A DNA stretch of 64,000 bases, taken from positions 2,090 through 66,089 of the forward strand of contig CAZMMZ010000007.1 of the NCBI GenBank assembly GCA_964567575.1, read 5' to 3'. The translations under genes and the position numbers were made by a program. Of this stretch, positions 5,748 to 57,952 are shown in pieces (the first letter of the stretch is position 1; each line of letters opens with the position of its first letter). The notes beneath the pieces are model-generated. The model ran no database searches, was not told the DNA's origin, and saw only the letters and a program-made list of their open reading frames with translations. Source of the DNA: Candidatus Undinarchaeota archaeon. Lineage in GTDB: Archaea; Undinarchaeota; Undinarchaeia; Undinarchaeales; UBA543.

Positions 5748-6785
5748 TTATGGGAATAAAGCCTGTCTTAAGATTGTTTCCTCTAGTTTTTCTTTCAGCA
5801 TTTCTACTTTTTCTCTACCTGGATGATTTTTTGGTGTTAGTTCTAATGCTTTCGTCATACATGTGAGTGCTTCTTTGTATCTTCCTAAAGAGGCGAGTGT
5901 AACTGCTTTATTGTTCCAAACGCCTTCAAAATTTGGGTCTGCTTTTATTGCCTTATTATAAGATTCTAGTGCTTCCTCAGGTCTTTTAATATGATTGAGG
6001 AAATTTCCTCTGTTATACCATATTTCTGGAGCGGTTGGAATTAGTTTTGTTATTATGTTATAACATATTAAGGCTGCTTCATATCTTTCTAACTGGCGTA
6101 ACATGATTATTTGGTTTAGCCATATTGTTGCTGCTCTTTCTTTTTTTGTTTCTAGTTCTCCTTTGTGCTTTGTTCCTTCTTTTTCTAATGATACGTCATA
6201 CTGTTTGTTGTTTACTATTACATAAGCATGCCCGAATGCTCCCATCCCTTCAATTATTCCTCGTTCTTCTTTTGAAAACTTATCTAAATCCACTTGTTTG
6301 TAGCTACAGGTTTCAAATTGGATTTTGTAGTTAAGTGCTCGTGCTATTTCTCCAAAAACAGTTGACATTGCTAAACAATCTCCGTGCCGCGTTTGTCTGA
6401 AGTTTGATACTGTTTTTTCACCTGGAATTCTAAAGGACCGCATAAGTTGGTTTATTTGTCCTCCTAAATATTCTCTCAAATGCATCAGAATTTCATCATC
6501 ACTTATTTTCTTATTTTTCCGCACCCACGTTCCAAGCTCTTTAAGTGTTCCATCTATCCATTCTGGGAATTTTCCTGCTTTGGCGATTTTTAGCAGTCCT
6601 CTTGTTTTCTGTTGCCTTAGTTTTGGTTTTATTTTTTTGATTTTTTTCTCTAGGTCTGTTGGTAACACAGGAAACAGTTTTTTATTTTTGTAATAAAATT
6701 CTATTAAAAATAGTAATGTTGATGTTGGATTTATTGCTGCTTTAATGAATCTTTCCACTGGTATTTTATCTATATCTACAACCAT
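5748..6785 (-). CDS. Transglutaminase-like cysteine protease domain fused to TPR repeats
   Basis: 345 aa. Candidate Cys-His-Asp core (HGDCLAMSTVF .. FGHAYVIV .. YDVS), then three or more TPR-like repeats (AALICYN.., EALESYNKAIKADPN, EALTCMTKALELTP). Confidence 0.65.
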   Translation of the reverse strand: MVVDIDKIPVERFIKAAINPTSTLLFLIEFYYKNKKLFPVLPTDLEKKIKKIKPKLRQQKTRGLLKIAKAGKFPEWIDGTLKELGTWVRKNKKISDDEILMHLREYLGGQINQLMRSFRIPGEKTVSNFRQTRHGDCLAMSTVFGEIARALNYKIQFETCSYKQVDLDKFSKEERGIIEGMGAFGHAYVIVNNKQYDVSLEKEGTKHKGELETKKERAATIWLNQIIMLRQLERYEAALICYNIITKLIPTAPEIWYNRGNFLNHIKRPEEALESYNKAIKADPNFEGVWNNKAVTLASLGRYKEALTCMTKALELTPKNHPGREKVEMLKEKLEETILRQALFP

Positions 6786-9110: not shown

Positions 9111-9508
9111 ATAATGTACCACGCTTTTGGAGAGAAATACCGCAACGGTATAATTTCATTGGAAATAAATGCAAAGGTTGCGATTGGATTAATTTCCCTC
9201 CAAGAAGTATTTGCAAAAAATGCGGATCATCAGAATTTGAGCGATTTGATTTGAAAGGAGAAGGTAAGGTTATTACCTACTCTGTAATTAGGGCGGCGCC
9301 TCCTGGTTTCGATAACTTAGTTCCTTATGTTGTTGCTATAATTTGTCTTAATGATGGTCCACGAATCACTTCGCAAATTGTAGATTGCGATCCAGAAGAA
9401 ATTGAAATAGGAAAAAAAGTTAAAGTATGCTTCAGAAAGATTGTTGAGGACGGAAAAGCTGGTGCAATTTCGTATGGATATAAATTCAGGTTATTAGATG
9501 AACAGTGA
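9107..9508 (+). CDS. DUF35 OB-fold/zinc-ribbon protein (thiolase-HMGCS scaffold subunit)
   Basis: 133 aa. CxxC..CxxC rubredoxin-like ribbon (CKGCDW..CKKCGS) followed by an OB fold. The position between thiolase and HMGR matches the known archaeal thiolase/HMGCS/DUF35 complex. Confidence 0.85.
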   Translation: MNNVPRFWREIPQRYNFIGNKCKGCDWINFPPRSICKKCGSSEFERFDLKGEGKVITYSVIRAAPPGFDNLVPYVVAIICLNDGPRITSQIVDCDPEEIEIGKKVKVCFRKIVEDGKAGAISYGYKFRLLDEQ

Positions 9509-10697
9509 ACCAATTTCTAATCAGGGCTTCGCGAGTAAAACGAGCGAATGCCCTCGGCCATCGTCCGCGGCCAGGCGGACTTCACGAGTTTCCAAATTTT
9601 ATGAGCGCTCAATTGAAGAGCGACTTGAATTTGTTAAAGAATTCGCAGATTTATCTGATGAAGAAATCAATTTATTGAAATCTAGCCCTGATCAGAACAC
9701 ATCTGACAAAATAATTGAGAATGTTATAGGGAATTATTCACTTCCAATTGGAATTGCAGTGAATTTCCAAATTAATGATAAAGATTATTTGATTCCAATG
9801 GTTTTAGAGGAGCCATCAGTTGTTGCAGCTGCTTCAAATGCTGCGAAACTCGCTCGAGAGTGTGGTGGGTTCACTACATCAGCTGATGATCCAGTGATGA
9901 TTGGGCAGATTCACGTTTTCGATAGCAAGCACCCAAATGTAGTGCAACACATTTTAGCAAAAAAAGAAGAGTTACTTTCTGTTGCAAATTCAAAAGATCC
10001 AATGATGATTGAACGCGGAGGTGGTGCAAAAGATTTGGATGTGAAAATTATTAATGATAATCATATTCGCATACATCTTTATGTTGATTGTCGCGATGCA
10101 ATGGGTGCAAATGCAGTAAATACCATGGTTGAAGCAATTGCGCCATTAATTACTGATGAAATCGGGGGGAAAGCAGTTCTTAAGATTATTTCTAATATGG
10201 CAGATCGTAGACTTGTACGTGCAGAATGCACATTCAGTAGAGATCTTCTTGGAGATGATACAATTGATCTTATTCACAAGGGTCAATTAGCTGCTGAAGC
10301 AGATTCTTATCGCGCAGCAACACATAACAAAGGAATTATGAATGCAATCTCAGCAATTTGCGTAGCAACTGGAAATGATTGGCGCGCAGTTGAGGCAGGG
10401 GCTCACGCTTTTGCCGGGCGCGGCGAAGGATATAATCCTCTTACAAAATATCAAATATTAAATCATGGTGATTTACTTGCAAGCATTGAGCTTCCACTTG
10501 CTGTTGCAACTGTTGGCGGCTCAACAAAACTTCCACAGGCGCGAGTGAATCAAAAAATTATTGGTGCGCAAACTTCACAAGAACTTGCTCAGGTAATGGC
10601 TGCAGCAGGATTGGCGCAAAACTTCGCAGCTCTGAAAGCAATTACAACAGAAGGAATACAGAAAGGGCATATGCGATTGCACGAGCGGAAAAACTAA
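9498..10697 (+). CDS. hmgA: HMG-CoA reductase, class II, with an unusual about 30-aa N-terminal leader encoded by a GC-rich repeat element
   Basis: ENVIGNYSLPIGIAVNF, LEEPSVVAAASNAAKLAR and DAMGANAVNTMVEAIAPLI are class II (P. mevalonii / S. aureus type) motifs. The only ATG/GTG/TTG upstream of the conserved FYERSIEERL region is ATG 9498, so the ORF reads through element copy C. Confidence 0.9.
   Translation: MNSEPISNQGFASKTSECPRPSSAARRTSRVSKFYERSIEERLEFVKEFADLSDEEINLLKSSPDQNTSDKIIENVIGNYSLPIGIAVNFQINDKDYLIPMVLEEPSVVAAASNAAKLARECGGFTTSADDPVMIGQIHVFDSKHPNVVQHILAKKEELLSVANSKDPMMIERGGGAKDLDVKIINDNHIRIHLYVDCRDAMGANAVNTMVEAIAPLITDEIGGKAVLKIISNMADRRLVRAECTFSRDLLGDDTIDLIHKGQLAAEADSYRAATHNKGIMNAISAICVATGNDWRAVEAGAHAFAGRGEGYNPLTKYQILNHGDLLASIELPLAVATVGGSTKLPQARVNQKIIGAQTSQELAQVMAAAGLAQNFAALKAITTEGIQKGHMRLHERKN
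9506..9580 (+). repeat. GC-rich two-hairpin element, copy C (inside the hmgA 5' end)
   Basis: TGAACCAATTTCTAATC / AGGGC-TTCGC..GCGAA-T-GCCCT / CGGCCATC / GTCCGC-GGCCAG-GCGGAC. The core is near-identical to copies A and B. Its first 3 nt are the DUF35 stop codon. Confidence 0.8.
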
Positions 10698-11261: not shown

Positions 11262-11368
11262 GTTATGCTGCGGCATAGTGGTGTGAGGTTAACCTCACAC
11301 TCTGAAAGGATTCAGAGGCCATCCGCCCTGCATTCGCTTCGCGAAGCAGGTCAATTGAAATTTGGTAA
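11262..11368 (-). ncRNA. Candidate structured RNA / divergent enlarged member (copy D) of the GC-rich hairpin family
   Basis: Minus-strand reading: TTACCAAATTTCAATTGA / CCTGC-TTCGC-GAA-GCGAA-T-GCAGG, then GCGG..CCGC enclosing two perfect hairpins (CTCTGA/TCAGAG; TGTGAGG-TTAA-CCTCACA). It shares the leader and the hairpin-1 architecture with copies A-C, with compensatory changes. It lies between convergent genes. The strand is inferred only from similarity to A-C. Confidence 0.45.
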
Positions 11369-11860: not shown

Positions 11861-12730
11861 CTAACCAAGTAATGTGATTATAACAACCCCAGCTAACATC
11901 AAACCAGCGCCAATCAGATGCTCAGTAATATGATCTTCTTTGAAAATAAAATAAGCCAGAACAGTTGAGAGCAGGATACTTGTTCTTTTAACAGAAATCA
12001 TGTATGCAGCATCAACCATACTAATTGCTGTGAAATGCAAAACTGCAGTTAAAGCAAGCAGCACGCCCATAATAACCAATAGTCCTGGCTTTTTGAAAAG
12101 TTTTTTTATATTACTGGATTTTTTTATTGCAATCGGGAACATCAGTAATGCAAGGAGCGGAATATAAAAACCTGCAAAGAATAATGGGCTTGATGCTACT
12201 ACAGCTTTTTTCCCAAGAACCGATGTTATTGAAAAAATCACAGCTACCCCTAAAAGATACACTGATCCAATTTCATCTTTAATTGCTTTGAATGGGGCAA
12301 GAATTCCTTTCCGCCAGTTTTTGATATTAAGAATGTATGTCCCCAAAACAATAAGCAGAATCCCGCTTATCCCATACAACGTAAGGGTTTCTCCAAGAAT
12401 AACAAATCCAGTAAGAATCATGAAAGCCGGAGTGAACGCGAGAAACGGCACAGTCAAAGCAATTGGGGATTTGGAAAGCCCTTTCATAAAAAGAATTGCT
12501 GCAAGAATTTCAAGTGGAGTAAGAATAATTAACGAACTCCAAAAACCTGGTCCAAATTTTGGAATTCCTGAAATCAAAAGTATTGGCAAAAGCAAAGGTG
12601 CTGCAAAAAGCATTCTGCCCAGAACAACAATATATGGGTCATCTTCTTTTAGAACATGCTTTGCTATAATATCCATAATCCCAATGCAAATCGCACTTCC
12701 AAGTGAAAGCAAGAACCAAAGCGGTATCAT
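11861..12730 (-). CDS. EamA/DMT-family transporter
   Basis: 289 aa, about 10 TM segments arranged as two EamA-like halves. Confidence 0.7.
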   Translation of the reverse strand: MIPLWFLLSLGSAICIGIMDIIAKHVLKEDDPYIVVLGRMLFAAPLLLPILLISGIPKFGPGFWSSLIILTPLEILAAILFMKGLSKSPIALTVPFLAFTPAFMILTGFVILGETLTLYGISGILLIVLGTYILNIKNWRKGILAPFKAIKDEIGSVYLLGVAVIFSITSVLGKKAVVASSPLFFAGFYIPLLALLMFPIAIKKSSNIKKLFKKPGLLVIMGVLLALTAVLHFTAISMVDAAYMISVKRTSILLSTVLAYFIFKEDHITEHLIGAGLMLAGVVIITLLG

Positions 12731-13238
12731 AACAAACCACCTTTCAATAGCAGTATCAGTGTCATAGCAAATACAAACACATCAAAAAGCAATTCATCAA
12801 TATATACAGGATAAAGTAATTTCCGCACTTCGAAAGTGAATGGTGGCAAATTTCCATAGAATTTCAATTTTGTTAAGTTGTCAGAAAGTATGTGACTGTA
12901 ATAACCAGCATAAGCAATTGCTGCAATATCCACGCGCCACCAGAAAAGCGGAGCGAAAAGAACTGAAATTATTATAATACCTGGCCAATAATGCACAAAC
13001 CGACTTTTGTAATGCGGATCTTCTTTGTGATCTTTGTAATGATCATTAAAACACCGCTTCCACATATTTGTAACATGCAAATCTTTTGTTTTGAAAATGT
13101 GGCAAGCAAAGTGGTCAAGATCAATAAGCACCGCCAGTACGCCAGCAGCAAGAACATGCAATAGTGTAATGTCTTGAACAAAAAGAGATACAACTGCTCC
13201 TGCTAAGAATCCAAACAGCAAATGAGATCTTGGCATCA

Positions 13239-13239
<1 letters not shown>
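12727..13239 (-). CDS. Membrane protein, possibly DUF457/YdjM-type metal-dependent hydrolase
   Basis: 170 aa, multi-TM, starts MMPRSHLLFGFLAG with later His-rich segments. The assignment is tentative. Confidence 0.45.
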
Positions 13240-14644
<1,405 letters not shown>

Positions 14645-42263: not shown

Positions 42264-42908
42264 TTATTTATTGCAAACTTCACTTAGTTTTTCGTAAGAT
42301 CTGTTTATACTATTCAAAGCATCTACTAAATGTGGCATGTACTTGAATCCTGGTGTTGCTCCGAAATCTGAATAAATCAAAATGTAATGAAGTTTAAGCA
42401 ATCTTTCTGTTTCTATTTCTTCAACAGCTTGTTCTAATGTTACTGGTGCTTTTATTTTCAGTCCGCCGCCTTCTAATCCTTTTGACAGGCGCGCTAAAAG
42501 ATCATGAGTTTCAGCTAGTTTTAGAATGTCATGTATTTCCTCTTCAGAATATCCCATTTTTTCAACATGCTTCTGTGCGAGTTCTGCTGATTTGAATCTG
42601 TGGTTCGTATCCAAAGCATCAATTCCTTTTCCTATATCATGATAAAGTGTACCGCATCTCAAGATTTCTTTATCGTGTTCATTCAAATCTCTTGTATCCA
42701 TAACTGCTCCTTTATCCTTTACTTCACCAAGCAGTCCCATAACATTAAAAGTGTGATCAAGCGGGTCTATATCTTCATGCGGTTCAGATTGTTTAATCCC
42801 TTTCATTACAAGCATTTCTTCAGGAAGATTCTCTTTAATCTTATCAAAATTATTTTTGAAAATTAATTCATTACCTTTCAAAAGTTCTCGTAATATTTTG
42901 TAATCCAT
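42264..42908 (-). CDS. HD-domain phosphohydrolase
   Basis: LYHDIGKG motif. I place the start at ATG 42908 (MDYKILREL). The track's longer ORF (to 42974) starts at an ATG inside hairpin 1 of repeat copy A. Confidence 0.7.
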   Translation of the reverse strand: MDYKILRELLKGNELIFKNNFDKIKENLPEEMLVMKGIKQSEPHEDIDPLDHTFNVMGLLGEVKDKGAVMDTRDLNEHDKEILRCGTLYHDIGKGIDALDTNHRFKSAELAQKHVEKMGYSEEEIHDILKLAETHDLLARLSKGLEGGGLKIKAPVTLEQAVEEIETERLLKLHYILIYSDFGATPGFKYMPHLVDALNSINRSYEKLSEVCNK

Positions 42909-42932
42909 TTTGAAATTAGTAGCCCCGAGCAG
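42909..42932 (-). repeat. Second copy of the tRNA-Gln 3' end (tRNA nt 61-73 plus trailer)
   Basis: 42915-42932 is an exact 18-nt copy of 43033-43050 (attagtagccccgagcag). Similarity extends to 24 nt with 2 mismatches. Confidence 0.9.
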
Positions 42933-43011
42933 TTCCGAACGTCCGCCTTGCCGCGGACAATGGCATGAGGGCATTCGCCTACGGGCGAAGCCCTGGTTTG
43001 AAATTGGTTCA
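42933..43011 (-). repeat. GC-rich two-hairpin element, copy A (downstream of tRNA-Gln)
   Basis: Minus strand: TGAACCAATTTCAAACC / AGGGC-TTCGCC-CGTA-GGCGAA-T-GCCCT / CATGCCATT / GTCCGC-GGCAAG-GCGGAC / GTTCGGAA. Confidence 0.85.
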
Positions 43012-43037
43012 GATCTGTCTAAGTTATTTGTGATTAG

Positions 43038-43110
43038 TAGCCCCGAGCAGATTCGAACTGCTGTCCCAAGCTCCAGGGGCTCGGATGATTGACCACTACA
43101 CCACGGGGCT
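43038..43110 (-). tRNA. tRNA-Gln (CUG), no encoded CCA, apparent C at position 33
   Basis: Hand-folded: AGCCCCG-TG-GTGT..-CGAGC CCCTGGA GCTTG-GGAC-AGCAG TTCGAAT CTGCT-CGGGGCT-A. The acceptor and D region match archaeal tRNA-Gln. Confidence 0.8.
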
Positions 43111-54412: not shown

Positions 54413-54489
54413 TGGCAGGCCCGCCGAGATTTGAACTCGGGACTGCGGCTCCGCAAGCCACCATGATATCCAAGCTACACCACGGGCCT
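54413..54489 (-). tRNA. tRNA-Arg (GCG), CCA encoded
   Basis: Hand-folded: AGGCCCG-TG-GTGT..-GTGGC TTGCGGA GCCGC-AGTC-CCGAG TTCAAAT CTCGG-CGGGCCT-G-CCA. Confidence 0.88.
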
Positions 54490-54534
54490 AATTTAGCTTT
54501 AGAATTCTAATTCTATGTCTTTATATTATTACCG

Positions 54535-55071
54535 TTATACTACCCTAAGCCAGTTTATGAAAAGGTATGGGAATTTGCTAAGTGCAAACCATGCGAGAGT
54601 CATGTAAAATGTTCCCATTATAATATACTTTATTGGATTTTCATGAAATGTGAAAAATCTGCTGATTTCCCTGAAAACTTCTGCTAATATAAATATGACA
54701 ATTCCCCAAACCAAGAAATTACTAAGTGTTAAAAAACTGGCAAAAATCGCTATAAAGATCATGTGAATCATATCCATCCCAACTAAAATCGGGTTGTAGA
54801 TTCCTATTTTTGCACTTAATATCTTTGATGGCCATGTTGATAATATTGCTACTAATATTGCTATCCACGGTCCATAAATTATTGCCAAGAATAATATCAA
54901 AATGCTGTGTACTTCAAGATTCACTGTGTGATATACTAAATTTGATCTGCTGAGAATACAAAGAACTATTGTCCAAATTAGCATCCTTGAAGCGCCTGGA
55001 AGAACAATTGGTGCGAGAACGAGAATTAAGACTAGCGACATCACTCCCATGAAATATTTTTTTATATCCAC
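54535..55071 (-). CDS. Multi-TM membrane protein (family member P3)
   Basis: 178 aa, 5-6 TM segments. VNLEVHS..IIYGP pattern. Confidence 0.55.
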   Translation of the reverse strand: MDIKKYFMGVMSLVLILVLAPIVLPGASRMLIWTIVLCILSRSNLVYHTVNLEVHSILILFLAIIYGPWIAILVAILSTWPSKILSAKIGIYNPILVGMDMIHMIFIAIFASFLTLSNFLVWGIVIFILAEVFREISRFFTFHENPIKYIIMGTFYMTLAWFALSKFPYLFINWLRVV

Positions 55072-55138
55072 ACTAATCCCCTCTCTTGTTTGCTATTACT
55101 ACATTTAGCCGTTTATTAATTTTTGTATTAAAGTAAAA

Positions 55139-55154
55139 AAGCACCACCGGAGAG
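55139..55154 (-). repeat. Second copy of the tRNA-Arg(CCU) 3' end (tRNA nt 61-73 plus trailer)
   Basis: A 16-nt exact copy of 55229-55244 (aagcaccaccggagag). The adjoining AT-rich 15-17 nt (55126-55140 vs 55214-55230) are also similar. Confidence 0.9.
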
Positions 55155-55214
55155 TTCCGAACGTCCGCCTGGCCGCGGACAATGGCCAAGGGCATTCGAC
55201 TTCGTCGAAGCCCT
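55155..55214 (-). repeat. GC-rich two-hairpin element, copy B (downstream of tRNA-Arg CCU)
   Basis: Minus strand: AGGGC-TTCGAC-GAA-GTCGAA-T-GCCCT / TGGCCATT / GTCCGC-GGCCAG-GCGGAC / GTTCGGAA. Confidence 0.85.
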
Positions 55215-55231
55215 ATTAAAAATGTAAGAAG

Positions 55232-55306
55232 CACCACCGGAGAGATTTGAACTCTCGACTTTTTCCTTAGGAGGGAAACGCCTTATCCAGACTAGGCTAC
55301 GGTGGT
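55232..55306 (-). tRNA. tRNA-Arg (CCU), no encoded CCA
   Basis: Hand-folded: ACCACCG-TA-GCCT AGTCTGGATA AGGC-G-TTTCC CTCCTAA GGAAA-AAGTC-GAGAG TTCAAAT CTCTC-CGGTGGT-G. Confidence 0.88.
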
Positions 55307-55316
55307 ATTTTGAAAT

Positions 55317-57059
55317 TTACATCCTGTCCGGGACTTCGATTCCAAGAAGATACAAGCATTTCTTTAATGTTTTAAATGTTGCGTTAACCAATCCCAACCG
55401 AGCGTCTCTTACTTCAGTGTCTTCAGCATCTAAAACAGGATTTGTGGTGTAAAATGAGCTAAACTTGTCTGCCAATGCGTAAGCATAATTAGCAATAATA
55501 TGTGGTTGATAAGTTTCTGCGGATTCTGCTATAACACTTGGAAGTTTTCCAATTTGTTTTATTAATCTCTGTTCATCTTTATTATTCAAATGTTTGAATT
55601 TAATACTAGCAAGTGCTGGTTTCTTTTTTGCTTTTTCCAAAATTCTTTTTGCCCTAACTGCAGCGTATTGAATGTAAGGTCCAGTTTCTCCTTCAAATTC
55701 CAATGCAGTATCCCAGTCAAAGAAAATTGTTTTATTATTTCCAACATTTAGCATACTAAATTTCATAGCTGCAATTGTTATTTTCATTGCAAGAGCTCTC
55801 TGTGTTTTTTGATCAAGTTCTGGATTTCTTTGAATAATTTCACCCATTGCTTTTTTTAGCATTTCATTTTTTAATTCTGAATAAAGAATTGCAGTTCCTT
55901 CACGCGAAGACATTTTTCCACCTTTCAAACTTACGAGAGCATAAGCCAAATGATAACATTTCTTTGCTTGTTTGAAGCCCATTAATTCAAGGGTTTTGAA
56001 TAATTGCTGAAAGTGAAGTCTTTGTTCAGATCCAACAACATAAACTGAGCGATTAATTTTGTATTTCTTAAATTTCTCTTCAGCTAGTGCAAGATCTTGT
56101 GTTGAATATAAAGTTGTTCCATCAGTTTTCAATAAGAGCCAAACCGGTAGCCCGTGCTTCTTTAGATCAACAATTAATGCTCCTTTACTTTTCTTTGCTA
56201 GTTTCTTTTTTCTAAGTTCTTCAGTTAATTCTCTTCCTCTATCAAGTAAATCACTTTCATAAAAATCAACATCAAAATTTGCACCAAGTTCTTTGTAAAT
56301 TTCTTTAAATTCATCAATACTCCATTTTCTAAATTGTTTCCAAAGATCAACAAGCTCTTTATCGTCTTGAGCTTCAAGGTGTTTCAGAATTTCAGTTACT
56401 TCTTCTTTTTTGTCAGGAGTTTCATTTAGTTTTTGTACAGCTTCTGTGTAAATGCTTCCTATCCAATTTGAAAGATTTCCTTTTGGTTTTTCTCCGTCAT
56501 GGAAATTCTTGTAAGCCCAAATTGTTTTTGCAACATGCATTCCTACATCATTAAATAGATTTGCCTGAACAACATCGTATCCTGCTTCTTTAATAATTCT
56601 TGACAAACTTTCTCCAAGTGTTGTGTTTCTCAAATGTCCAATATGAAAAGCCTTGAGTGGATTAGGTTGACTGTACTCAATCATTATCTTGTCTTTCTTT
56701 TTCTCACCTTTTCCAAATGAATCAGTATTCGCTTCAGTTACAACAGCTTTTGCGAATTCTCCGAATTTGAGGAAGAAATTAACATAAGCTCCTGCAAGTT
56801 TGATTAGAAAAACACTTCGCGGCCTTTTGATTTTTTCAATAATTTCTTCAGCAATTTTGCGAGGACTTACTTTTTTGATTTTGCCAAGTGGGAAAGAAAT
56901 ACTACAAGCCAAATCTCCCATTTTGTAACTTGGGGGTTCGTCAATATGATTTTTTAATTTTATTTTTCCTAGTGGAGTTTTTGCGATTCCTAATTTTGGT
57001 AGAACCTCAGCTATTGCTTTTGTTACATCTTCTTTTGCTTTAATCCATGGATCTTTCAT
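55317..57059 (-). CDS. argS: Arginyl-tRNA synthetase
   Basis: 580 aa. Class I HIGH region (NPLKAFHIGHLRN), KMSSREG, and a C-terminal DALR anticodon-binding domain. Confidence 0.93.
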   Translation of the reverse strand: MKDPWIKAKEDVTKAIAEVLPKLGIAKTPLGKIKLKNHIDEPPSYKMGDLACSISFPLGKIKKVSPRKIAEEIIEKIKRPRSVFLIKLAGAYVNFFLKFGEFAKAVVTEANTDSFGKGEKKKDKIMIEYSQPNPLKAFHIGHLRNTTLGESLSRIIKEAGYDVVQANLFNDVGMHVAKTIWAYKNFHDGEKPKGNLSNWIGSIYTEAVQKLNETPDKKEEVTEILKHLEAQDDKELVDLWKQFRKWSIDEFKEIYKELGANFDVDFYESDLLDRGRELTEELRKKKLAKKSKGALIVDLKKHGLPVWLLLKTDGTTLYSTQDLALAEEKFKKYKINRSVYVVGSEQRLHFQQLFKTLELMGFKQAKKCYHLAYALVSLKGGKMSSREGTAILYSELKNEMLKKAMGEIIQRNPELDQKTQRALAMKITIAAMKFSMLNVGNNKTIFFDWDTALEFEGETGPYIQYAAVRAKRILEKAKKKPALASIKFKHLNNKDEQRLIKQIGKLPSVIAESAETYQPHIIANYAYALADKFSSFYTTNPVLDAEDTEVRDARLGLVNATFKTLKKCLYLLGIEVPDRM

Positions 57060-57096
57060 TGTTCACCTGTATGTTTCTGCGGTTTTTAAATGTAAG

Positions 57097-57170
57097 TGGG
57101 CCCGCAGGGATTTGAACCCCAGTTTGGAGGTCCGAAGCCTCCCGTGATATCCAAGCTACACCACGGGCCC
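57097..57170 (-). tRNA. tRNA-Arg (UCG), no encoded CCA
   Basis: Hand-folded: GGGCCCG-TG-GTGT..-GGAGG CTTCGGA CCTCC-AAAC-TGGGG TTCAAAT CCCTG-CGGGCCC-A. Confidence 0.85.
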
Positions 57171-57212
57171 ATTTTAACCTTAAATGTAGGGTATTAGCTT
57201 ATTTAATAATAT

Positions 57213-57225
57213 TGTCATATGTCAC
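57213..57225. promoter_or_regulatory. TGTCATATGTCAC motif, site 3
   Basis: 43-55 nt upstream of the tRNA-Arg(UCG) 5' end, just past the alaX stop. Confidence 0.3.
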
Positions 57226-57228
57226 TTT

Positions 57229-57867
57229 TTAGTGGTCTAGCATAATTTCAATACGTTCTTTGCCTGCACCAATATTTTTCCTCTTAAGCCGGATTTTTCC
57301 AATTTCTCCGGTCCGCTTGACGTGTGTTCCCCCGCAAGGCATTTTCCATTCTCCTAATTCCCACCATCTTTTTCCAGGTTCTTCAGAATCTTCATAAACT
57401 TTTATTTCTAAATCTTGTGCAATTATTTCATCAACTTTTTTTTGTATTTCGTCAAAATAATTTACAACTGATTCTTCCATTTCATAATCAATTCGAGCTT
57501 TTTCTGGATGCATATTGGAACCAATTAGTTTTGACTGTCCACTAATGTCTTTGAAAATGTAATAAATAATATGCGCTGAACTGTGAAGACGCATTAATCT
57601 AAATCTGTTTTCCCAATCCAATTCTACTTTGACAGTGTCGTCTTCTTTAAAATCCGGCGCGCTTTCCAAAGTGTAAACAATATCATCTCCTGTTTTCAAA
57701 GCCTCAGTAATTTGGATTCCAGTAATAGTTCCTTTATCTGATGCCTGTCCACCAGAAAATGCAAACAAAACAGTCTTATCTAAAACAACATTGTTTCCAT
57801 CCAGTTTCTGAACCACAGCATCACATTCTTTCAAATATGGATCTTGCCAAAATAATTTTTCTGTCAT
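57229..57867 (-). CDS. alaX: Alanyl-tRNA editing protein AlaX (SAD-type)
   Basis: 212 aa. HSSAHIIYY (HxxxH) and CGGTHV (CxxxH) zinc motifs of the Ala/Thr-RS second additional domain. Confidence 0.85.
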   Translation of the reverse strand: MTEKLFWQDPYLKECDAVVQKLDGNNVVLDKTVLFAFSGGQASDKGTITGIQITEALKTGDDIVYTLESAPDFKEDDTVKVELDWENRFRLMRLHSSAHIIYYIFKDISGQSKLIGSNMHPEKARIDYEMEESVVNYFDEIQKKVDEIIAQDLEIKVYEDSEEPGKRWWELGEWKMPCGGTHVKRTGEIGKIRLKRKNIGAGKERIEIMLDH

Positions 57868-57874
57868 ATGAATA

Positions 57875-57952
57875 TGGTGGGCCTGAAGGGATTTGAACCC
57901 TTGATCTACAGCTTAGAAGGCTGTCGCCTTATCCAGACTAGGCTACAGGCCC
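57875..57952 (-). tRNA. tRNA-Arg (UCU), CCA encoded
   Basis: Hand-folded: GGGCCTG-TA-GCCT AGTCTGGATA AGGC-G-ACAGC CTTCTAA GCTGT-AGATC-AAGGG TTCAAAT CCCTT-CAGGCCC-A-CCA. Confidence 0.9.

Follow-up and report, generated by a model that had tools for sequence, protein, structure and literature searches.

At the centre of this account are a tRNA gene whose 3' end is present twice, and the small hairpin-rich element between the two copies, in a stretch of 64,000 nucleotides (nt), hereafter 'the window', of contig CAZMMZ010000007.1 (assembly GCA_964567575.1) from an Undinarchaeota archaeon, with a GC content of 37%. On the minus strand an intact tRNA-Gln(CTG) gene is followed by the element, here called copy A, then by a repeat of the tRNA's own 3' end and, 6 nt beyond that repeat, by the ATG (42908) of a gene termed the HD gene. 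This order had been read from the letters in a first-pass annotation, and every detail of that reading is confirmed. ARAGORN and a local Rfam search both give the tRNA gene, which the whole-window Rfam scan missed. Coordinates of the features of this and the other copies in the window are collected in Table 1.

The repeated sequence, CTGCTCGGGGCTACTAAT, has exactly two occurrences in the 64 kb (43050->43033 and 42932->42915), and the likeness extends to 24 nt with two mismatches, as the first-pass annotation had it, an alignment score reached by none of 500 shuffles. For a 14-mer of the repeat, allowing up to two mismatches, 0.07 matches were expected and no shuffle reached two. The upstream repeat is part of the functional tRNA-Gln; the downstream one, to judge from its sequence, would be the displaced native 3' end and trailer, and its trailer is similar to that at the empty tRNA-Gln site of a relative, L012 (ACTCTTTCAAAAT versus ACTAATTTCAAAAT; L numbers denote sequences from related genomes). 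The duplication does start at tRNA position 61, as had been claimed, and this recurs at all tRNA-linked copies described below. Five contigs from the same population are identical across the copy A locus and are therefore uninformative on polymorphism. The tRNA-Gln(CTG) itself has an unusual anticodon loop (43074-43080, minus strand), CCCTGGA, with C at position 33, which is near-universally U; C33 is also found in L014 and L016, and U33 in L012 and L017.

Copy A comprises a left arm, a core of two hairpins and an octamer. Hairpin 1 reads AGGGC-TTCGCC-CGTA-GGCGAA-T-GCCCT, the linker is CATGCCATT, and hairpin 2, GTCCGC-GGCAAG-GCGGAC, supplies the conserved right end, ...GCGGAC. The left arm can be aligned with those of the copies behind tRNA-Gln in the genome UBA543 and in L014, and with those of two copies away from tRNAs, one in L034 and the other copy C of the window. 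A motif to which attention had been drawn, AATTTCAAA, is indeed present at both of the positions given for it (42997-43005 and 42909-42917), though with 46 matches in the window versus about 39 expected it is not enriched, and on its own it is therefore not significant. It was rejected as a target signature, and the element's left arm accounts for it better.

A repeat search found a second core, copy B, behind tRNA-Arg(CCT), where the whole layout recurs over 55127-55306: core, then GTTCGGAA, then CTCTCCGGTGGTGCTT, which is the 3' end of tRNA-Arg(CCT) itself. The length of the copy B repeat is 16-30 nt. Since its upstream repeat abuts hairpin 1, copy B is without a left arm; in hairpin 1 it does not differ from the copy behind tRNA-Leu in UBA543. 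The surroundings (54413-57952, minus strand) hold four tRNA-Arg genes (GCG, CCT, TCG and TCT) around the gene for arginyl-tRNA synthetase (ArgRS) and an AlaX-like gene, an arrangement largely kept in L033 and L034.

Table 1. Element copies, their targets and the flanking direct repeats in the window
Feature	Position	Strand	Basis
tRNA-Gln(CTG), intact target gene of copy A; last 14 nt (43037-43050), with 4 nt of trailer (43033-43036), in direct repeat 1	43037..43110	-	ARAGORN; Rfam tRNA 49.2 bits, local search
Copy A, direct repeat 1: CTGCTCGGGGCTACTAAT = tRNA positions 61-73 plus trailer CTAAT	43033..43050	-	exact 18-mer
Copy A, left arm: AT-rich, 38 nt, CACAAATAACTTAGACAGATCTGAACCAATTTCAAACC	42995..43032	-	alignment with other left arms
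Copy A, core: GC-rich, two hairpins	42941..42994	-	covariance model R1, 74.9 bits, E=4e-16; stem tables; fold
Copy A, T-loop-like octamer GTTCGGAA, between right end and repeat	42933..42940	-	sequence
Copy A, direct repeat 2 (exact 18 nt at 42915-42932)	42909..42932	-	24 nt with 2 mismatches
tRNA-Arg(CCT), target of copy B, directly after ArgRS gene	55231..55306	-	ARAGORN; Rfam; ArgRS domains
Copy B, direct repeat 1: CTCTCCGGTGGTGCTTCTTACATTTTTAAT, position 61 through 14-16 nt of trailer	55215..55244	-	repeat alignment
Copy B: core 55163-55214 plus octamer GTTCGGAA 55155-55162	55155..55214	-	R1, 75.2 bits
Copy B, direct repeat 2: CTCTCCGGTGGTGCTTTTTTACTTTAAT, native 3' end plus trailer	55127..55154	-	0/500 shuffles
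Copy C: partial left arm GAACCAATTTCTAATC plus 58-nt core 9523-9580	9507..9580	+	R1, 74.3 bits
Divergent member D: left-arm motif ACCAAATTTCAATTGA, hairpin 1 outer stem CCTGC/GCAGG	11283..11366	-	weak nhmmer match

The comparison was extended to about 260 kb from some ten genomes, in which the covariance model R1 of the core identified seven copies of the short type present in the window, with a 58-nt core, and an nhmmer profile identified five copies, plus one solo right-end remnant, of a related subtype of about 120-230 nt that we term the TARA type. Both are GC-rich two-hairpin repeats, found in a few genomes of uncultured Undinarchaeales-like archaea of the DPANN group; a scan of a genome collection gave three real archaeal loci and seven bacterial chance matches. 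The inner stem of hairpin 1, TTCG(N)C/G(N)CGAA, is invariant but for one compensatory swap of CC/GG to AC/GT, a single bulged pyrimidine in the same hairpin is T in 11 of 12 copies, and the outer stem comes in five versions that are complementary every time. In hairpin 2 the closing pair has swapped from G-C to C-G. The right end is invariably ...GCGGAC or ...GCGGAG. On the other side the AT-rich left arm is cut back to differing extents, giving nested lengths, and as it is homologous in tRNA-linked and non-tRNA copies of both subtypes it belongs to the element. Terminal inverted repeats are lacking, complementarity between the termini being no greater than in shuffled sequences for any of seven copies. 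Rfam gave tRNA matches only and no family for the element itself, the next best model, CRISPR-DR28, reaching 19.5 bits where the threshold is 35, a match taken as chance.

That the element's end mimics a T-loop, as the first-pass annotation had suggested, is a real regularity: the octamer GTTCGGAR or a variant (GTTTGGAG, GTTCGCCAA) is present in seven of nine tRNA-linked copies and in none of the five others, and it is constant irrespective of the T-loop sequence of the host tRNA. One possibility is that a sublineage which targets tRNAs has its right end extended by a T-loop mimic; another is that the duplicated stretch really begins at G53, the downstream T-loop having been altered in a systematic way.

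The relatives L012-L020 were reached via the neighbouring gene for D-aminoacyl-tRNA deacylase and all have an adjoining tRNA-Gln(CTG). In four of them, L014, L017, L018 and L020, the tRNA-Gln layout includes the element. At tRNA-Gln in L014/L015 and L017 a longer, TARA-type element ending in GGAG is followed by the tRNA 3' end, the repeat being identical at 13 of 14 positions in L014 and exact over 16 nt, CCA included, in L017. L020, the most distant (52% deacylase identity), has two tandem elements, and the tRNA end is repeated after each of them, over 20 nt after the first and 10-13 nt after the second; the second element, E2, is of the window type. In L018 a copy at the contig end reads ...CAGCGGAG-GTTCGGAG-CTGCTCGGGGCTAC and continues into a trailer resembling that of L016; its hairpin 1 is interrupted (12627-12782, minus strand), with TCCGC-GAGCAG-GCGGA, like hairpin 2 of the window type, substituting for its 5' half, which suggests nested insertion or module shuffling between subtypes. 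The metagenome-assembled genome 'archaeon UBA543' has adjacent genes for tRNA-Gln(TTG) and tRNA-Leu(TAA), and behind each come a near-identical core, GTTCGGA(A/G) and that tRNA's own positions 61-76; the Gln repeat is exact over 21 nt and the Leu repeat matches at 15 of 16, one C being missing from a C-run.

The interval from the deacylase gene to a gene termed HD-YjeF_N is a variable hot spot in which small genes differ from genome to genome (40675-43982 in the window; about 10800-12500 in L012, L014, L016, L017, L019 and L020). In the window, L014, L017 and L020, all element-bearing, the tRNA-Gln gene points the same way as the deacylase gene; it is inverted in L012, L016 and L019, which are empty, and apparently in L018, which is filled. 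Two ARAGORN calls in these sequences were set aside: a 'tmRNA' in L019 is spurious, and a 'tRNA-Pro' in L020 is really an intron-containing tRNA-Gln.

Not all copies adjoin tRNAs: C, D, one in L030, two in L018 and one in L034 do not. Behind the threonyl-tRNA synthetase (ThrRS) gene of L018 there is a TARA-type element, and after it the final 27 nt of the ThrRS coding sequence, with the stop codon, occur once more. This downstream copy is native DNA, since it is identical at 26 of 27 positions to the empty orthologue in L016 and its opposite strand codes for the C-terminal SFRQ* of the convergent gene's product. In L014 a solo TARA-type right-end remnant, AAATTTAACCAATTCAAATATCCGCGGAG, lies directly after the ThrRS stop codon (6363-6395, plus strand), the site that the full copy occupies in L018. 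The L034 copy, also of the TARA type, is in plain intergenic DNA and has a 30-nt flanking repeat. Elsewhere in L034 (5685-5795, plus strand) a tRNA-Arg(TCT) missed by ARAGORN has an insertion of about 33 nt between D-arm and anticodon stem, probably a non-canonical intron, and adjoins an open reading frame (ORF) with a faint LAGLIDADG match.

Copy C has neither an adjoining tRNA nor an octamer, and lies where the HMG-CoA reductase gene begins; according to the empty orthologues L031 and L032, the native coding sequence of this gene restarts immediately 3' of hairpin 2. Orthologous reductases begin MK(T/S)SRVSGFY; in the window the sole in-frame ATG in 9498-9610 (plus strand) is at 9498, upstream of the element, and the ORF runs from it through copy C. 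The annotated 399-residue reductase thus bears about 27 residues from the element (...QGFASKTSECPRPSSAARR...), the original start codon being gone. The HD gene ORF (42264-42974, minus strand) is likewise stretched through copy A, to 236 residues instead of 214, and in L020 the HD-YjeF_N gene (11964-13250, plus strand) has been called from a GTG upstream of both tandem elements. Copy D sits between convergent genes and has two further, unrelated hairpins, CTCTGA...TCAGAG and GTGAGG...CCTCAC.

For 13 copies a uniform test compared 90 nt to the left of hairpin 1 with 45 nt to the right of the conserved right end, using 500 shuffles per copy. Significant direct repeats of 13-31 nt flank 10 of the 13 (0-3 of 500 shuffles doing as well). 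The right-hand repeat starts 0-1 nt past the right end in nine of these ten and 5 nt past it in L020-E2. Between the left-hand repeat and hairpin 1 there are 0-54 nt. Lengths vary, clustering near 14-18 and 27-31 nt. At tRNA genes, be they Gln, Arg or Leu, each repeat matches the host tRNA's own 3' end and begins at position 61 every time, right behind the T-loop box, and the ThrRS repeat likewise begins just past a TCGAA pentamer; a TCRAA-like motif stands ahead of the repeat at the tRNA and ThrRS sites and is absent at the L034 intergenic site. The duplication is not tRNA-specific, extending as it does to the 3' end of the ThrRS coding sequence (L018) and to intergenic DNA (L034). No 3'-end repeat accompanies the five other tRNAs of the window or three empty tRNA-Gln genes. 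Downstream copies show decay: a substitution in L014, the C lost in UBA543-Leu and shrinkage to 10 nt in L020-E2. In the window the repeats bear genomic trailer (CTAAT, CTT), not CCA, and so were copied from DNA or a precursor rather than from mature tRNA; priming by, or copying of, mature tRNA, as in retroplasmids, was an idea dropped on this ground.

Comparison with related genomes, which the first-pass annotation proposed as one check, does yield empty sites, and presence or absence of the element varies at four targets. The tRNA-Gln site is empty in L012/L013, L016 and L019; the ThrRS site in L016, L012 and the window; the start of the HMG-CoA reductase gene in L031 and L032; and the tRNA-Arg(CCT) site in L034 and L033, L034 (a TARA genome) having the same context of ArgRS, tRNA-Arg(CCT) and membrane-protein gene. 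The downstream repeat and flank of copy B are colinear with the L034 empty site, the insert being the 60-nt core plus octamer. Orthologous empty sites show the downstream repeat to be the native sequence.

What, then, made the repeats? Very probably the repeated tRNA end is a target-site duplication, a long one, generated on insertion of a non-autonomous mobile element. Of the three readings offered in the first-pass annotation, the second, insertion with an unusually long target duplication, is borne out by site-derived repeats and empty sites; the first holds in part, in that the element is non-autonomous and mobile. How the insertion takes place is a more tentative matter. Target-primed copying of the kind known from short interspersed nuclear elements (SINEs), possibly via RNA, is the closest fit to the set of features, and we regard it as a possibility to be entertained with reserve. 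Taken as a whole, as a compromise between the general claim and this specific mechanism, the explanation stands a little above an even chance. A tiny gene-less element, mobilised in trans, would integrate starting with a nick at the boundary between T-loop and T-stem; beginning with its fixed right end it would be joined or copied into place, the other strand would be opened 13-31 nt further downstream, and fill-in would duplicate the interval. Nick-primed copying from one end is suggested by the combination of a fixed right end, a truncated left, long variable duplications and the lack of inverted repeats. Because the repeat starts at position 61, the upstream copy makes the tRNA whole and functional, the original 3' end with its trailer being displaced downstream. 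With its 3' end duplicated the gene that is hit stays intact, and hence the element is able to live inside single-copy essential genes.

A more explicit version is a long shot: an archaeal SINE-like retroposon, its structured RNA ending in ...GCGGAG, might insert by target-primed reverse transcription from a nick behind the T-loop box. The T-loop-like tail GUUCGGAA might pair with the antisense strand of that box, G-T wobble accommodating GTTCGAAT and GTTCAAAT.

Several points weigh against insertion with target duplication as envisaged here. The 45 ORFs scanned in the window include no reverse transcriptase, transposase, integrase or Cas1 that could be the mobilising enzyme. Nor was a larger autonomous relative found: viral-contig scans with four patterns gave nothing or a single chance match, and phage blastn gave no match. 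A metagenome-contig scan requiring the GTTCGGAA tail gave only six matches, by chance, in GC-rich coding sequence. No direct repeat is detectable by the uniform test at C, D or L030. Five copies have a downstream repeat whose tRNA-derived part is perfect and whose adjoining trailer part has diverged, which could be due to gene conversion or selection. The two L018 ThrRS repeat copies differ at six of 27 positions, whereas L018 and the empty L016 are 87% identical, and such divergence is more in keeping with an element-borne copy than with a young duplication. Some left arms appear internally deleted rather than simply truncated, the octamer GTTCGGAR is not accounted for, and the comparison is confined to about 260 kb from some ten genomes.

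The rival to be taken most seriously, albeit unlikely, is that a transposase or Cas1-like integrase with a stagger of about 16 or about 30 bp moves DNA by cut-and-paste or by copy-out-paste-in, making the element akin to the small transposable elements with inverted repeats known as MITEs. Tandem arrays at one target, as in L020, are in keeping with it, being known for casposons. The casposon analogy drawn in the first-pass annotation nevertheless fails, because terminal inverted repeats are absent and the repeat is not fixed at 14-15 bp. No copy has the inverted repeats that such an enzyme would lead one to expect, a variable left end set against a fixed right end is at odds with it, and neither a transposase nor Cas1 is among the 45 window ORFs. 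The two length clusters of 14-18 and 27-31 nt do recall the ISTde1 (15-17 bp) and IS1202 (27-28 bp) classes, but the IS1202 family is bacterial and has TGT termini (bioRxiv 10.1101/2022.12.17.520857).

Decidedly less probable is a mini integrative element that brings its own copy of the target's 3' end and enters by recombination that is either site-specific or based on short homology (Campbell-type), the repeats being attL and attR as in cis-mobilisable elements (CIMEs). A direct repeat of a tRNA 3' end is, after all, the classic footprint of integration (PMC9897764). The upstream ThrRS copy, with its six differences in 27 from the native downstream copy, does look foreign, and a left arm is common to the Gln-linked copies of three genomes. 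Against this site-specific form of the first reading stands the finding of one core family at many unrelated targets, which makes it unlikely: with the same core at Gln, Arg and Leu tRNAs, at ThrRS and in intergenic DNA, each target would need a new att copy. Moreover, the copy B repeat includes 14-16 nt of locus-specific trailer, an integrase is not among the 45 window ORFs, and a circle of 60-230 bp is implausible as a replicon.

We give still less credence to single-strand transposition by an HUH enzyme, as for IS200/IS605, 3' of a T-loop-like motif, with the repeat arising by flank capture and re-insertion. Subterminal hairpins, the conserved bulged T of hairpin 1, the absence of terminal inverted repeats and the insertion of copy C without a repeat speak for it, and the targets (TTCGAAT|, TTCAAAT|, ATCGAAAC|) resemble the right ends (GCGGAG|, TCGGAA|). 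However, repeats are present in 10 of 13 copies, whereas hairpin elements derived from IS200/IS605 (PATE/REP-like) go without a target duplication, the two-step capture needed for them is contrived, hairpins 1 and 2 are dissimilar, unlike the end hairpins of IS200/IS605 elements, which are similar, and the window has neither TnpA nor TnpB.

Barely credible is the third of the earlier readings, a functional RNA module co-transcribed with the tRNA as an alternative 3' end, processing signal or decoy for which the 3' copy is needed, since, for all that the hairpins are kept with compensatory changes, the tRNA 5' strand pairs with either 3' copy in predicted folds and the downstream copy has kept its tRNA stretch better than its trailer, close relatives do without the element and downstream copies decay (L014, UBA543-Leu, L020-E2), the same kind of repeats flank the ThrRS and intergenic copies, C, D and L030 lie outside any tRNA context, and Rfam has no match.

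RNA-level variants were also considered and rejected. For splicing of the tRNA 5' part to the distal 3' copy no canonical bulge-helix-bulge motif can be drawn, and distal copies are decayed (L014, UBA543-Leu). Readings of the locus as a tRNA that is split or permuted, or as another tRNA-like gene, founder on the sequence ahead of the repeat, since the two cannot pair into a T-stem. C/D-box, H/ACA and ribozyme motifs were not seen by eye, and Rfam again had no match for them.

We take the element to be a miniature non-autonomous mobile element of a variant that appears new: we found no published description, and the papers on archaeal tRNA-integrated elements, casposons, IS1202 and mitochondrial hairpins that a literature search brought up do not describe it. 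That it represents a mechanism new to archaea has a minority chance. No described prokaryotic transposition system jointly matches the combination of no inverted repeats, one fixed and one truncated end, duplications of 13-31 nt and insertion behind the tRNA T-loop. Identification of the enzyme could bring to light a mechanism of integration not known before, possibly RNA-mediated, and, in nature, a safe route for putting DNA into essential genes, and it would show active mobile DNA persisting in tiny DPANN genomes. Were the SINE-like reading to prove true, no earlier case of a non-intron retrotransposon that makes target duplications would, to our knowledge, be on record for a prokaryote. Irrespective of mechanism there are consequences for annotation, as the element gives rise to tRNA fragments and ORF calls are extended through it, as with HMG-CoA reductase, the HD gene and the L020 HD-YjeF_N gene.

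How does the element compare with known systems? With viruses, plasmids and integrative and conjugative elements integrated in tRNA genes, and with CIMEs, it shares the sequence of intact tRNA, foreign DNA and partial tRNA 3' copy, as well as tandem accretion at one tRNA and location in a variable hot spot (PMC9897764). Known archaeal tRNA-integrated elements are 9-23 kb long and have an integrase, a single att specificity and repeats of about 44 bp (PMC9897764). The inserts considered here are 60-230 nt, gene-less and, going by the 45 window ORFs, without an integrase domain alongside, and their near-identical cores are at Gln, Arg and Leu tRNAs, with related cores at ThrRS and the intergenic site.

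Mitochondrial GC-rich hairpin clusters and double-hairpin elements are similar in being small GC-rich hairpins in an AT-rich compact genome whose modules are shuffled between subtypes (PMC4478555). Their flanking repeats are of 2-3 nt (AG or ACT) and their mechanism is possibly RNA-mediated (PMC4478555), in contrast to the 13-31-nt repeats and tRNA T-loop targeting here, and there is no sequence similarity. The IS1202 family, bacterial insertion sequences of about 1.5 kb with a DDE transposase, TGT inverted repeats and duplications of 15-17 or 27-28 bp (bioRxiv 10.1101/2022.12.17.520857), is alike in that these lengths are similar to the two clusters, and unlike in that here inverted repeats are absent and the window ORFs yielded no transposase.

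With MITEs the element shares being small, non-coding, multi-copy and polymorphic for presence; it differs in having no terminal inverted repeats and in its variable duplication of 13-31 nt versus a fixed 2-10 bp. Casposons are archaeal, several kb long, with Cas1, PolB, terminal inverted repeats and a fixed duplication of 14-15 bp; they prefer the 3' ends of tRNA and protein genes, preserve the gene by the duplication and form tandem arrays. Unlike theirs, the repeats here reach 31 nt, inverted repeats are absent and there is no Cas1 in the window. The reading of copy C as coding sequence resembles the case of the Rickettsia palindromic elements, which are read through in that way.

The closest parallel is with SINEs and 5'-truncated retroposons devoid of long terminal repeats (non-LTR), which have no inverted repeats, a fixed 3' junction, a truncated 5' end, variable target duplications and an enzyme supplied in trans. 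For such retroposons tRNA genes are safe targets in compact genomes (PMC5006619), as they would be for the element. We know of no retroposon of the SINE or non-LTR kind in archaea. Unlike SINEs, the archaeal element lacks a tail that is A-rich or derived from a partner, the window ORFs yielded neither a reverse transcriptase nor an endonuclease for it, and it inserts within the tRNA gene's 3' part rather than upstream of the gene; what it does have in common with them is a duplication of variable length, a precise 3' junction and a 5' end that is variable or truncated.

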